IMG/VR virus record: IMGVR_UViG_3300022744_000001
Span: 66,022-130,021 of that record
From: a virus
Direction: 5' to 3' (one strand)
Length of the DNA stretch: 64,000 bases
Shown piece after piece: positions 14,922 through 38,201 of the stretch. Within the stretch, counting starts at the first letter, position 1; every line of letters begins with the position of its first letter. The notes below the pieces were generated by a model. That model was not told where the DNA came from, did not search any database, and saw only the letters and a list, made by a program, of their open reading frames with translations. A program made the translations under genes and the position numbers.

Positions 14922-16097
14922 ATGGCCATGGCAGACATTCCCGCTGTAGTGCAGAAGTGGGAATCGTTGATTCAAGCCTATCGAGACGAGGCGCCGAACA
15001 TCGAGAAAGTCGGGGAGTTGTACGAACTCCGCAACAAAGATTACGAGGCATGGCGTGCTCTTGGTCCCGACACGTGGGCCTTCTACGGGCGATGGGAAGG
15101 GAAAACCGTCATCTTCCCCAAAGTCTCGTACGAACTCCTTCGTCGCCTTGGGATCTCCAACGTCTTCCTCTCGCTGCTCCAGCACTACGAGTTGCCACCG
15201 GCCATCCACAAGAAAGTCGAAGCCGCGGCCCGCTTCTACGGTAAAAACGCGCAGAGAATGTCGCGGAAGATCGACGAGGCCGTTGCCCTGTACCGCAAGT
15301 TGTTGACCACGTACGACCAGCACCTTGAACTCGCGAAAGCTGCTCTTACCCAAGGTAAGCCCCGAGGCACGGAGGAGAACAGTACCCAGATCCTCAATGC
15401 GGGACCGTTCAAGGTCGTCAACACGGGGCAGTTCTCTGAGCAGATCATGCAGACTTGCGCAGACGTAGTGCGCAAGGCAGCAAGCAAGCTCCAGAGTAAA
15501 GGGCTCGGCCAGGTTTGCTATGGCCAAGTGCTAGTCTCCAAGCGCGTGGCCGCCAGCACAAGGAACCTCGCATTCTACCGTGTCGCGGACGACGAGCTAT
15601 TCGTCCGAGCTGACCTGAAGGGGGCGGCGTTCAACGAGATTCTCCTCACCGTGCTCCATGAGCTTGGTCACCGCTACTACTTCCGGTTCACCCTGAAGCA
15701 GGCTGAAATCAAGAAGCTCTACTACACACTCAAAGGTCGCAAGGAAGAGTCCGAGGCCCTGCTGGTCAAAGAGGTCCTTGAGGACCCGAACCGGCGGCCT
15801 CAACCTGGAGAAATCGTCGTCCTGAAGAGGGAGACGTACGTGGTGGATGACGTGAAATACGAGCGTGGGGGCTGGCAGGTCAGGATGCATGACCAAACGG
15901 ACCCTAAACTCAAAGCCCACGTCGGACTTGAGCATTGGATTCGCCACAAGGGGTACAAACTCAAAGAGACCCCCAGCGATTTCGTCACGTCATATGCGAA
16001 GACAGACCCCGCCGAGAACTTTGCCGAGATGTTCGCGTACTACTGCGACGACAAGCTCCCCGAGGACCAGGTGGAGATGCTTAAGGCCGTGCTCTGA
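14922..16097 (+). CDS. HExxH zinc-metallopeptidase-like protein (391 aa)
   Basis: LHELGHRYYF motif; start placed by M2-like box. Confidence 0.55.
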   Translation: MAMADIPAVVQKWESLIQAYRDEAPNIEKVGELYELRNKDYEAWRALGPDTWAFYGRWEGKTVIFPKVSYELLRRLGISNVFLSLLQHYELPPAIHKKVEAAARFYGKNAQRMSRKIDEAVALYRKLLTTYDQHLELAKAALTQGKPRGTEENSTQILNAGPFKVVNTGQFSEQIMQTCADVVRKAASKLQSKGLGQVCYGQVLVSKRVAASTRNLAFYRVADDELFVRADLKGAAFNEILLTVLHELGHRYYFRFTLKQAEIKKLYYTLKGRKEESEALLVKEVLEDPNRRPQPGEIVVLKRETYVVDDVKYERGGWQVRMHDQTDPKLKAHVGLEHWIRHKGYKLKETPSDFVTSYAKTDPAENFAEMFAYYCDDKLPEDQVEMLKAVL

Positions 16098-16124
16098 AGG
16101 TATCCCCGACGGTGTAGAGACGGT

Positions 16125-16496
16125 ATGGTTTGCAGACATTCTGACGGCGATCGAAGCTGTACCACGCGATACCCGCGCTACGACCCGCCCGACCCGCCGA
16201 AGACGCCTGACGCGAGCAACTACAGCATCGAGGATGTGATGCGGGTAGGGCGTCACCTTGTGATGAAGGTGAAATACCCCAACTGCTCGAGTTGCGCGTT
16301 CGAGGGCACCAAGATCCTAGTGTTCCTCAACATCTCGGAGCTTGAAGCGCTGAAATGGCGGAAGATCGACCCGCACTTCCGTGACCCCCGAAGGAAGTCC
16401 ACCACGGAGGCTCCGAGCCCTGCGGCCCGCTTCCCAGGGACTCCAGAGGGCTGGGCGGATGCGGTTGCTTACGCAAACTCCAAGGAGAGCAAGTGA
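16125..16496 (+). CDS. hypothetical protein (123 aa)
   Basis: M2 (GGTGTAGA-N6-ATG). Confidence 0.5.
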   Translation: MVCRHSDGDRSCTTRYPRYDPPDPPKTPDASNYSIEDVMRVGRHLVMKVKYPNCSSCAFEGTKILVFLNISELEALKWRKIDPHFRDPRRKSTTEAPSPAARFPGTPEGWADAVAYANSKESK

Positions 16497-16499
16497 CGG

Positions 16500-16787
16500 T
16501 TACGTCTTGGTCGTGAGCTTCGCTTCGACCTTGTCAGCGACCCCGTCTAGCTCCTTGACGAGTCTCTCTATCGTGTCCTTGTCCACTCCAATCCAATCGT
16601 GGTGGAGCTGGAAAAACGTGGTGAGGGCATCGCAGTGCGACAGCATCTCAAAGGCTTGGCCTCGAGTCACTGGGAGAACCAAAGGTGCGGCCGAGCCGCT
16701 CCCCGCCAACGCATTGCAGTCTTCACACCCACGGCTGAGGGCGTATCCCGCCCCGTGCCTTTCGCAAACACCCATTGCTTCACTCAT
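16500..16787 (-). CDS. Cys-containing hypothetical protein
   Basis: ATGA overlap with upstream gene. Confidence 0.45.
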   Translation of the reverse strand: MSEAMGVCERHGAGYALSRGCEDCNALAGSGSAAPLVLPVTRGQAFEMLSHCDALTTFFQLHHDWIGVDKDTIERLVKELDGVADKVEAKLTTKT

Positions 16788-17017
16788 GGTCCAAACCCGC
16801 CCGGCAAAACCCACCATCGAACCCAGAGGCTCTCCACGCGTGAAGGTTTCCGTGTCAGCACAAACCCCGTTGGCCCTTTGGCGAGGACAGAGACTCGCCG
16901 TTTAGACTTTCGGGGCTCGACCCACAGTAGGTAATCCGACGAGGGCAAGGGCTGGGCAAATCGCACTACGACTTGCAGCTGCTTGCGCCGGAACTTCACC
17001 CGCTGCCTCTTTTTCAT
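16784..17017 (-). CDS. basic hypothetical protein (77 aa)
   Basis: M2 (GGTGTAGT-N9-ATG). Confidence 0.5.
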   Translation of the reverse strand: MKKRQRVKFRRKQLQVVVRFAQPLPSSDYLLWVEPRKSKRRVSVLAKGPTGFVLTRKPSRVESLWVRWWVLPGGFGP

Positions 17018-36169: not shown

Positions 36170-36846
36170 CAGAAGGGGCAGCCCTCTTTGACCACGTAGT
36201 CGCGACGGTGCTTCTCGCAGCGAACCGTCGAGTAGGGGTCGGGAGCAGCCTTCGCCGCGGACTTCCCGTCGTTGATCTCGAGGCGCATGGCCGGGCCCTC
36301 CTTGGGGACACCAAGCGGGGTCTCGCTCGGCACTGGCTTCCCGTCGATGAAAAGGTCTTTGACCCTCGGAGCGATGCGGGCTCGGAAGGTGACGTCTTCG
36401 TCCATCTTGACTGCCCCAATGGCTTTTGCGCCGGGAGTCGGAGAGAGCGGCCAATCAGCCCACCGCCGGGAAGTGAGGGGGATATCGGCGGTCAGCGCTG
36501 GCCCCCGATACCCAAAGTCATGCAGGAAAGCGAACGGGGGCTGGCGGACGCACTCGTTGGCAACCATCGAGCTGATGTTGTTCATGAGAGTGAACAACAC
36601 GCGAAGGGCTCGCATTTCGAAGACCCGGTCACTCTCGTCTTTGACGACCCGGTCCACCGAGTGGATGTTGGTATCCCCGAATTGCAAGGTCGCCTTGATA
36701 TTCATGGTAGGGCCGCCCTCTACCATCGTGCCCTGAGTGAAAGCGATCTGAACCCACTTTGCCGAGAGCGCACCCAATACGATCGGCTCAGGGGAACCGA
36801 ACGGCCGCTGCCCTCGACGCTTGAGAAACTCGAAATTGATGCTCAT
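36166..36846 (-). CDS. hypothetical protein with C-terminal zinc ribbon (226 aa)
   Basis: GGAGTTGGAGA RBS; M2 palindrome upstream. Confidence 0.55.
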   Translation of the reverse strand: MSINFEFLKRRGQRPFGSPEPIVLGALSAKWVQIAFTQGTMVEGGPTMNIKATLQFGDTNIHSVDRVVKDESDRVFEMRALRVLFTLMNNISSMVANECVRQPPFAFLHDFGYRGPALTADIPLTSRRWADWPLSPTPGAKAIGAVKMDEDVTFRARIAPRVKDLFIDGKPVPSETPLGVPKEGPAMRLEINDGKSAAKAAPDPYSTVRCEKHRRDYVVKEGCPFC

Positions 36847-36893
36847 TCTCCAACTCCGTTGAGGGCTTTTACACCGGCGGTGTAGGAAAAGCC

Positions 36894-37118
36894 ATGCCGA
36901 GATACAACGAAAACGTGCGCTCCGGAGTGAAGCTGCAACGCGCGGCCATCGATTTGAAGGATATTCGCGCGGAGCTTGCGCGGTTCCGGCTATCGGACCT
37001 GGCCCACTACGCGAAACCGATGGCAGAGTTCATTGAACACCTGCAAGAGGGCGAGCGGATGCTGAAAGAGCTGTCGGAAGTCATTGACAGTGATTATTTC
37101 GGCACGGACCCCGGCTAG
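36894..37118 (+). CDS. hypothetical protein (74 aa)
   Basis: M2 (GGTGTAGG-N7-ATG). Confidence 0.5.
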   Translation: MPRYNENVRSGVKLQRAAIDLKDIRAELARFRLSDLAHYAKPMAEFIEHLQEGERMLKELSEVIDSDYFGTDPG

Positions 37119-37555
37119 GAAACCATGCGGTCGGTGAGCCGCTCTGCCCAGAGAAAGCCAGTGAAGCCGAACGCCGCATTGAACTTCACATGACAACTCG
37201 AGCACTGGAGATTGACGCAGTTGCCTCCCGAGGGCCCGTTCATGAGCGTATCCGCTTTGCCGCAGTCGGGGCAGCGGGAGGCGTCGAGTTCACCGCGTTC
37301 CCACGGAGTCAGATTGTCTCGAGCCTTGAAGGTTCGATCCTGGGTTTCCTTGGCCTTCTGCCCCTTCATGTCGCGAAGCCATTGGTCACGGTCTTCGATG
37401 CGAAGTGCTGTGGCCCAAATCCAAGCGGAGCCCCATGACCCGAGGGCCACCGACAGCATGCCCGCGAGCAACGCTGGGTGAACGAGCAACGCCGTCGCTA
37501 GGAGTTCAAAACCAACAATGACGAGCAGGAGAATGGAAACGTAGCGATACCTCAT
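37115..37555 (-). CDS. membrane protein with C-terminal zinc ribbon
   Basis: M2 (GGTGTACG-N8-ATG). Confidence 0.55.
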   Translation of the reverse strand: MRYRYVSILLLVIVGFELLATALLVHPALLAGMLSVALGSWGSAWIWATALRIEDRDQWLRDMKGQKAKETQDRTFKARDNLTPWERGELDASRCPDCGKADTLMNGPSGGNCVNLQCSSCHVKFNAAFGFTGFLWAERLTDRMVS

Positions 37556-37598
37556 GCCCTACGCGTACACCGCGGATCTTTCTCTGTCCACGCTAGGT

Positions 37599-38201
37599 AT
37601 GGACAGAAAATCGAAACGGAACCTGACCCTGTTCTTCACGTTCACCGCGGTGGTCGTCGGGCTCATCGCCTACGGCGTCATCACCCATACCGAGCCGGGT
37701 TTGCAGCAGGCTTGCGCTACGGGCCCGTCCAAGATCGCCAACTACGAGGGCACGTGCTTCGACGTGAAGTGGCCCAAGCTGCCCTTGACCGTGAACTCGT
37801 CCTACGGCTCCAAGACCGACGTCGAGGTTCTGGAGGGCACGGTCAAGCTCGTGAACCAGCGCCTGGGCATGAAGGCCCTCGAGATGACCACGGATGCGAC
37901 TCCCGACGTCCTCGTGATGTTCGGCCAGGCCCCGGACCCCAACGGCGTCATCAAGCACGAGGGCGGCACCACGACGCACTACTTCGGAGCCCTCAACCAA
38001 GCCAGGCACGCGGACGTTCGGGTCTACAACATGACGCTCGTCCAAGAGCTTGCCCCGGCGCTTTACCACGAGCTGGGTCACGTCCTGGGCCTTGCCCACG
38101 ACGACTACGGGGACAGCATCATGATGATCGGCTCAGGGGAGGGCGCGACCATCAGCGACTCGGACCGCAAGCTCCTGCGAAGCATTTACGCCGGGGACTG
38201 A
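37599..38201 (+). CDS. membrane-anchored metzincin-type zinc metallopeptidase (HExxHxxGxxH plus Met-turn)
   Basis: YHELGHVLGLAHDDYGDSIMM; N-terminal signal-anchor; alternative start 37554. Confidence 0.65.
   Translation: MDRKSKRNLTLFFTFTAVVVGLIAYGVITHTEPGLQQACATGPSKIANYEGTCFDVKWPKLPLTVNSSYGSKTDVEVLEGTVKLVNQRLGMKALEMTTDATPDVLVMFGQAPDPNGVIKHEGGTTTHYFGALNQARHADVRVYNMTLVQELAPALYHELGHVLGLAHDDYGDSIMMIGSGEGATISDSDRKLLRSIYAGD

Follow-up and report, generated by a model that had tools for sequence, protein, structure and literature searches.

Four non-homologous HExxH genes, including a predicted membrane-anchored matrixin-type metzincin, within 23 kb of a huge phage-like genome

We analysed a 64,000-nucleotide stretch of a viral metagenomic record (IMG/VR IMGVR_UViG_3300022744_000001, positions 66,022 to 130,021; hereafter the window), in which four open reading frames (ORFs) lying within 23 kb encode proteins that carry the HExxH motif of zincins. 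We refer to these proteins, in order of position, as A, B, C and D. The window originates from a 448,224-bp metagenomic contig (ENA ERZ27252002 k141_47206), which encodes B and C in identical form and whose gene neighbourhood, apart from a Tad2-like gene, consists almost entirely of small genes without annotation, lying on both strands. A megablast search of the region against 50,697 phage records returned no match, showing no DNA-level likeness to known phages. IMG/VR viral contigs (100-512 kb) and 'uncultured phage' records (462-735 kb) contain relatives of A, C, D and of a nearby major vault protein (MVP) gene; on this basis we infer that the source is a huge phage and treat it as such, with no virion gene identified in the window. 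The four genes and their features, together with a fifth occurrence of the motif, are as follows (positions are those of the window).

14877..16097, plus strand: protein A, 406 amino acids (aa) from a GTG start; lethal factor (LF)/Mx1-like, 'polyvalent-type' putative zincin
14886-14912, plus strand: N-terminal tag LILRVAARY of A
15657-15671, plus strand: HELGH of A, at residue 261
15993-16034, plus strand: predicted glutamate helix of A, YAKTDPAENFAEMF
17028..17642, minus strand: protein B, 204 aa; ORFan and candidate minimal zincin
17577-17633, minus strand: N-terminal transmembrane segment of B (KD19 = 2.61)
17169-17183, minus strand: HELNH of B, at residue 154
17130-17159, minus strand: aspzincin-like GTVFLDHDYG of B
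27680..28162, minus strand: protein C, 160 aa; soluble member of a small new family of minimal zincin-like proteins
27944-27958, minus strand: HEMGH of C, residues 69-73
27884-27907, minus strand: EYDFFGWE of C (E86..E93)
27683-27697, minus strand: C-terminal PVAIR of C
37599..38201, plus strand: protein D, 200 aa, in an ORF that opens at 37554; matrixin-type metzincin by sequence, with a membrane anchor
37629-37685, plus strand: N-terminal transmembrane segment of D
37686-37715, plus strand: conserved juxtamembrane HTEPGL..C of D
38067-38102, plus strand: zinc motif of D, HELGHVLGLAHD (HExxHxxGxxH)
38115-38123, plus strand: Met-turn SIM of D (SIMM)
43889..44236, minus strand: 115-aa ORF with the fifth HExxH, HEHKH (FIHEHKHRF)

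All four genes behave as coding sequence, with third-position GC (GC3) values of 0.74-0.88, and a crude codon-bias gene caller prefers each of them over the overlapping alternatives; the positions that the initial annotation gave for their HExxH motifs are likewise confirmed. Across the called proteins of the window (~17,300 aa) we counted five HExxH motifs against ~0.7 expected by chance, and shuffling yielded P = 0.005 for at least four occurrences and P = 0.53 for at least one. The excess is real, yet one or two chance motifs are to be expected among the five. The ORF at 43889..44236, which had been missed in the initial annotation, is probably such a case, as its motif stands in a poor zincin context and the ORF is without Pfam or PADLOC match and without family support. 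A further HELDH at nt 40589 was dismissed, its frame being overlapped by better-scoring genes on the minus strand. The description of this peptidase density as unusual holds insofar as the HExxH genes exceed chance, but it is overstated, given that multiple, patchily distributed zincins are documented in jumbo phages: such phages carry one to three SprT-like or ArdC-like zincins, which have been interpreted as host-targeting proteases (PMC7824862), and ArdC-type metalloproteases have been catalogued in huge phages (bioRxiv 10.1101/2025.02.27.640493). Classification with profile hidden Markov models, which had been suggested as a check, assigned D to M10, whereas A stayed below all cutoffs, B had no Pfam match and C none to Peptidase_M78. 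Scans of all four proteins with PHROGs, NCBIfam and PADLOC gave nothing useful, PDB searches with the single sequences of A, B and C found no match, and a tblastn search of annotated phages with B, C and D was equally negative.

Judged by its sequence, protein D is a genuine matrixin-type metzincin. Alignments of its homologues open at query residues 16-34, which favours a start at Met16 of the frame (nt 37599). The Pfam model Peptidase_M10 (PF00413) scores 26.1 bits on D, above its curated cutoff of 24, and matches 38 of 40 aligned relatives with a best value of 6.8e-13. Positions 56-199 of the family profile align to residues 4-159 of MMP-20 (E = 2.7e-12), covering the entire catalytic domain, and the profile likewise spans the whole catalytic domains of MMP-8 and MMP-13. 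The family comprises 265 cluster representatives, recovered in an exhaustive search, plus 37 IMG/VR loci; among the best 150 of the 265 representatives, nearly all are ~180-230 aa long, and the alignments mostly run from the hydrophobic segment at the N-terminus through to the C-terminal end. Within the zinc motif HELGHVLGLAH, residues H157, E158, H161 and G164 are invariant and H167 is at least 90% conserved, and the full HExxHxxGxxH is present in 36 of the 40 members. D168 and S173 are nearly invariant, and the Met-turn residue M175, usually placed eight residues past the third His with the conserved S173 ahead of it, is invariant. The initial annotation, which took D for a membrane-anchored metzincin with Met-turn, is therefore borne out by a Pfam score above cutoff, by M175 and by an N-terminal transmembrane helix in all 40 members.

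This helix (KD19 = 2.17 in D, strongly hydrophobic) is flanked more positively on its N-terminal than on its C-terminal side in 36 of 40 members, so by the positive-inside rule the predicted topology is that of an N-in anchor with the catalytic domain outside the cytoplasm. Next to the membrane, the closest relatives share an H-x-E-x-G-L…C…C segment, whose conserved cysteines (C39 and C53) probably form a periplasmic disulfide, with a cysteine switch as the alternative; no pro-domain match was seen in D. We propose that D is a type-II mini-matrixin, in which a short positive N-terminus and a single transmembrane segment would hold a matrix metalloproteinase (MMP)-like domain of ~145 residues at the outer side of the cytoplasmic membrane. 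The zinc ligands would be H157, H161 and H167, with E158 as the general base and M175 as the Met-turn, and during infection the enzyme would most likely cleave an envelope or periplasmic protein that belongs either to the host or to a competing phage.

With the catalytic domain of matrixins and MMPs (MEROPS M10A, PF00413) D has in common the HExxHxxGxxH motif, the Met-turn, a GG-T-H segment and a C-terminal D…L..LY helix. It differs from them in having an N-terminal transmembrane anchor and the family-specific juxtamembrane segment, in the absence of a recognisable pro-domain or hemopexin domain, in the Asp rather than Ser that follows the third His, and in being encoded by a huge phage. An MMP-like enzyme is known from bacteria in the form of karilysin. 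Scans of cellular genome contigs with D gave only matches of ~40 residues around the active site of other metzincins, a 44-mer of D had no exact match in IMG/VR, and our search of the searchable literature found no description of phage matrixins. A functional precedent, compared here at the level of metzincins, is Mtz of Listeria monocytogenes, a secreted metzincin of phage origin that, like D as we predict it, acts outside the cytoplasm, and that changes the cell envelope and leaves cells more sensitive to lysis by phage (PMC8235301). Mtz comes with a TIMP-like lipoprotein partner and a CI/Cro-like switch (PMC8235301), whereas D has no conserved partner or regulator: in a clustering of conserved neighbours across 38 D loci no partner emerged and no neighbour family occurred in more than five loci.

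Protein B, the other membrane-associated candidate, has no known relatives. Among 5.8 billion proteins its sole match is B itself; there is no Pfam (E<=10), PHROG, NCBIfam, PADLOC or PDB match to the protein, no PDB match at E<=10 to its C-terminal 72 aa, and no phmmer match in ~950 kb of huge-phage DNA. It is absent from the syntenic slot in the related phage contig L003, and a single-sequence AlphaFold2 model is unusable (pLDDT 36). What sets B apart from a bare motif is the sequence that follows HELNH, which reads GT-x3-D-x-x-Y-G and places an Asp nine residues past the second His. In shufflings a D..YG within 40 residues past the motif arose with P = 0.008, and with P = 0.0002 when the preceding GT was included, the test being post hoc. 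Aspzincins are defined by HExxH plus GTxDxxYG with the Asp as third ligand (PMC3938660), and B resembles these M35 peptidases (deuterolysin, peptidyl-Lys metalloendopeptidase) in the order HExxH and then GT…D-x-x-Y-G, with an Asp as candidate third ligand (PMC3938660). Set against them, the motif of B is two residues longer (GTxxxDxxYG), no M35 model or structure matches in Pfam or PDB, and B is membrane-tethered and without homologues. B may thus be a membrane-tethered, aspzincin-like mini-peptidase with H154, H158 and D167 as its ligands, or else carry its motif by chance. The charge distribution weakly suggests an N-out/C-in topology.

The strongest competing explanation is accordingly that only three of the four genes are real zincins and that the HExxH of B, like that at 43889..44236, arose by chance in a membrane ORFan peculiar to this lineage and without metallohydrolase function. 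A background of ~0.7 motifs, with P = 0.53 for at least one, makes such an event unremarkable, and it fits with the lack of any homologue, family or PDB match, the lack of relation to A, C and D, the unusable model and the empty slot in L003; B also fails a PROSITE-style zincin pattern. Against it stand the aspzincin-like GT-x3-D-x-x-Y-G with its post hoc significance, the hydrophobic lead-in to the motif (PVI) and the position of the motif late in a domain of ~180 aa, as in small zincins. C, moreover, fails the PROSITE-style pattern too and yet has a family-invariant motif. On balance we favour B being a real zincin by a modest margin over even odds, and regard a chance motif as a serious possibility that falls short of them. 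Separately, the transmembrane segments of B (17577..17633) and D (37629..37685) share T-x-AVVVGL-x-A, at 40% identity over 20 aa in hhalign, while the rest of the two proteins is unrelated; this likeness may be due to chance or to a shared anchor module.

Protein A represents a much larger family. Its start is the GTG at 14877 and not the ATG at 14922, because a family-conserved LRVAARY peptide lies between the two; the ATG adopted in the initial annotation and a public gene call of 391 aa are both 15 residues too short. The reading of A as peptidase-like, on the other hand, is upheld. The family counts ~120 proteins, many of them on contigs of 335-620 kb (100-620 kb overall), with 67 loci in IMG/VR and two copies in some genomes. 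Across 38 aligned sequences H261, E262, H265, R266, Y373, E380, A383 and E384 are invariant, corresponding to HELGHR and a distal ENFAEMF helix. Pfam Peptidase_Mx1 matches 31 of these 38 members at E<=0.01 (best 8.9e-7), and ATLF, the anthrax lethal factor domain, matches one of the 38 (E = 0.002). The window copy itself reaches 15.8 bits with Peptidase_Mx1 (PF15890), below the cutoff of 25.6 and over residues 364-391 only, which is the Glu helix, and no Pfam model, including that of the polyvalent metallopeptidases (MPTases), scores above its cutoff. By sequence, A is therefore related to the Mx1 and ATLF families and is not a member of them. With Peptidase_Mx1/Mx (PF15890/PF15887; substrate-import-associated zinc metallohydrolase lipoproteins; PDB 9urd, 4l7a) it has in common the third-ligand helix F-V-T-x-Y-A…E-x-F-A-E; the similarity is limited to that helix, and A differs in not being a lipoprotein, in its N-terminal half and in being phage-encoded.

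A-like modules also occur as parts of much larger proteins. Three giant fusions, of 2274 aa (L080), 1077 aa (L050) and 889 aa (L047), each contain two A-like modules together with Topoisom_I and PolyA_pol domains, and other A-like modules are fused to HAD_SAK_1. These arrangements match the zincin-like MPTases of polyvalent proteins, which are described in PMC5512222 as LF-like domains in which a variable insert separates the HExxH helix from the Glu helix, present in one to five copies per protein and proposed to act in autoprocessing or in cleavage of host proteins after delivery. A shares with them the HExxH helix, the variable insert, the Glu helix and the LF-/Mx-like similarity, and the A-like modules share the placement of one or two copies beside unrelated enzymes in giant multidomain proteins. 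By contrast, the A of the window is a single free-standing gene, with no partner module encoded in the window, and the passages of PMC5512222 consulted contain no description that we found of the partners of the A modules (topoisomerase IB (TopoIB), CCA-type nucleotidyltransferase, HAD_SAK) or of the LRVAARY tag. Clustering of conserved neighbours at 42 A loci likewise revealed no partner, with no family shared by more than nine; an apparent neighbour at 25 loci was rejected as an antisense shadow ORF. We propose that A is a cytoplasmic LF/Mx1-like zincin, in which zinc would be bound by H261, H265 and one of two glutamates, E380 and E384, carried by a helix that follows ~115 residues later, beyond a variable insert. 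It would be the free-standing form of a module whose copies in other huge phages, often arranged in tandem, are fused to domains of topoisomerase IB, HAD and CCA/poly(A)-type nucleotidyltransferase, and would most likely process phage proteins or cut a host protein early in infection, as has been proposed for the MPTases of polyvalent proteins.

The N-terminus of the A family follows the pattern (M)DP-L-x-L-R-V-A-A-R-Y…I-G-D-P. The LRVAARY peptide is not confined to A, for it recurs at the module junctions of the giant fusion proteins, heads a TopoIB-containing protein and also heads neighbouring ORFs, most of which are divergent A-type paralogues and a few of which lack HExxH. It is found at 14886..14912 of the window and at L050, L047, L080, L049, L056, L048, L062 and other loci; within the window, a search for further A-type paralogues or tagged proteins returned A only. 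One speculative extension of these observations is that LRVAARY serves as the targeting or processing signal of a 'disaggregated polyvalent protein', whose tagged effectors, including expanded and fast-evolving A-type zincins, would be packaged or injected together, or be cut at the tag by the A-type peptidase and, separately, that the D family constitutes a clade of membrane-anchored matrixins that is restricted to phages and active in the periplasm of the host. We hold this combined proposal to be unlikely, if worth recording.

Protein C belongs to a small family of 12 homologues plus four IMG/VR loci, in which HEMGHVFA, P81, E86, F89, W92 and E93 are invariant. E93 sits 20 residues past H73 and, because this His-to-Glu distance is the spacing of thermolysin, it is the likeliest third ligand. 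At the extreme C-terminus every position of P-V-A-I-R is invariant or at least 90% conserved. In the zymogens of minigluzincins a tail plugs the active site, and the conserved tail of C could be an active-site plug or a recognition tag. An AlphaFold2 model computed from the family alignment (pLDDT 92, pTM 0.89) is composed of a helix at residues 2-15, strands at 19-22, 43-47 and 52-56, a helix at 64-76 that carries HEMGH and a helix at 86-99 that carries E86 and E93. In the order of its elements this model matches the zincin core as given in PMC5512222, namely an N-terminal helix, a three-stranded sheet, the HExxH helix and a second helix with a conserved Glu. C would then be a soluble minimal gluzincin-like hydrolase with H69, H73 and probably E93 as its ligands. 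Compared with minigluzincins (proabylysin, projannalysin, selecase), the ArdC C-domain and SprT/Wss1, C gives weak scores and has no sequence relationship to any of them, and it has invariants of its own in WGG, APF, GWE and PVAIR.

For both A and C one may ask whether a zincin-like scaffold has been put to non-proteolytic chemistry, such as the hydrolysis of nucleic acids or nucleotides. Both families keep the full triad, that is, HExxH with its catalytic Glu plus a downstream Glu helix, and the families nearest to A in sequence (Mx1, Mx and ATLF) are peptidases. YbeY has a different, His-only motif, which we count against this idea as well. Fusions of such domains in polyvalent proteins have, furthermore, been interpreted as processing peptidases (PMC5512222). 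We thus think non-proteolytic chemistry improbable.

Less probable still is that C is an ImmA/IrrE (M78) anti-repressor protease, which would cut a cognate helix-turn-helix (HTH) repressor to switch the phage programme, as the ImmA/IrrE-like label of the initial annotation would imply. ImmA/IrrE proteins (Peptidase_M78, COG2856) resemble C in being small, soluble HExxH proteins with a downstream Glu, but C does not match them in sequence, lacks an HTH partner and shows no structural likeness to them beyond that to other small zincins. Peptidase_M78 (PF06114) matches neither C at E<=10 nor any of the 12 family members at E<=1, and the family profile retrieves no IrrE, PprI or CapP chain from PDB at E<=10. 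Foldseek searches of the model against PDB and BFVD gave nothing significant, and throughout the structure searches IrrE-type folds ranked level with or below generic small zincins, and none reached significance. The proposed check for a cognate HTH repressor was negative too, with no HTH domain in the genes that flank C here and, according to precomputed Pfam lists, none beside it in the related contigs L004, L005 and L006. The synteny around C, which includes the MVP gene ~3 kb away, is preserved only in one close relative, L004. An ORF at 28159..28623 (minus strand), which overlaps the start codon of C, has weak zinc-ribbon-like matches (ADK_lid, DnaJ CXXCXGXG) and stands beside C only in L004 (53% identity). 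A module of MVP, zinc-ribbon protein and C was rejected, being present only in L004 and not in L005 or L006.

A single protease system, in which all four proteins cooperate, would account for the closeness of their genes within 23 kb but is hardly credible. Two of the families do co-occur elsewhere (A and D in 3300037722_000745, A and C in 3300036760_000522), though sporadically; between A, B, C and D lie dozens of small genes that are unrelated to them and occupy both strands; and neither D (five or fewer of 38 loci) nor A (nine or fewer of 42) has a conserved partner, while the synteny of C extends to a single close relative. Nor are the families homologous, since hhalign comparisons of B with A, C and D and of C with A aligned only the motif or a transmembrane segment, with no homology beyond the five-residue motif. 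A, C and D represent conserved families of predicted zinc hydrolases that are typical of huge phages, and B is an orphan. Overall, we favour, with a probability of about 0.7, the reading that the window belongs to the accessory region in a phage-like genome of huge size (448 kb), and that four independent, non-homologous HExxH genes, rather than a peptidase system, would act there in the separate ways proposed above. The targets put forward for A, B and D in the initial annotation, host envelope or defence proteins, are conjectural.

Several other genes of the window deserve mention. Between B and C, at 24959..25327 (minus strand), the precomputed Pfam annotation of the source contig places a Tad2-like gene of the anti-Thoeris sponge family, and the related contig L003 has at 21158..21182 a gene with an Acb5 (anti-CBASS) domain; together these suggest that the region is a counter-defence or accessory island. 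Inside the span of the four HExxH genes, at 30822..33458 (plus strand), lies the MVP homologue of 878 aa, with Pfam matches to MVP_shoulder (2e-20) and Vault_3 (2e-10) and PDB matches to MVP chains at E ~1e-14. Copies at ~37% identity are found in 'uncultured phage' records of 462-735 kb and one at 69% identity in L004; viral MVPs have already been reported in a 2023 preprint (10.1101/2023.11.10.566534), so that the window MVP is not new. Upstream of A, at 9115..10155 (plus strand), is a GAF-GGDEF diguanylate cyclase (GGDEF 2e-39; phrog_14602 2e-67), a candidate phage-borne c-di-GMP synthase. ARAGORN calls an unusually long, 91-nt tRNA-Ala(CGC) at 34565..34655 (plus strand), which overlaps predicted ORFs on both strands and could be intron-containing or a false call. 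Base composition shifts abruptly at 58001..62000, where GC skew reaches +0.31 and +0.21 and AT skew -0.33 and -0.25 while values elsewhere are near zero, coinciding with a 422-aa ORF at 58537..59805 (plus strand) without Pfam or PHROG match. The few other annotatable genes encode a DUF6573 protein (3355..3972, minus strand; 1e-31) and a Phage_ProQ_C-like protein (41769..42503, minus strand; 8.5e-7).

The four genes do not reveal a new kind of system and are in keeping with what is known of big phages, which tend to carry assorted metallopeptidases. What the analysis provides is defensible assignments for three previously unannotated huge-phage proteins: D as the representative of a phage-borne, membrane-anchored matrixin family of ~265 sequence clusters, A as one of a widespread family of putative lethal-factor-like peptidases through which free-standing genes are connected with giant fusions of the polyvalent type, and C as a predicted new minimal zincin. 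It also removes a misleading ImmA/IrrE label, which would have implied a lysogeny switch. Finally, it names mutable residues, predicted to be catalytic, through which the part played by proteolysis in huge-phage infection, be it in envelope remodelling, effector processing or counter-defence, may now be probed.

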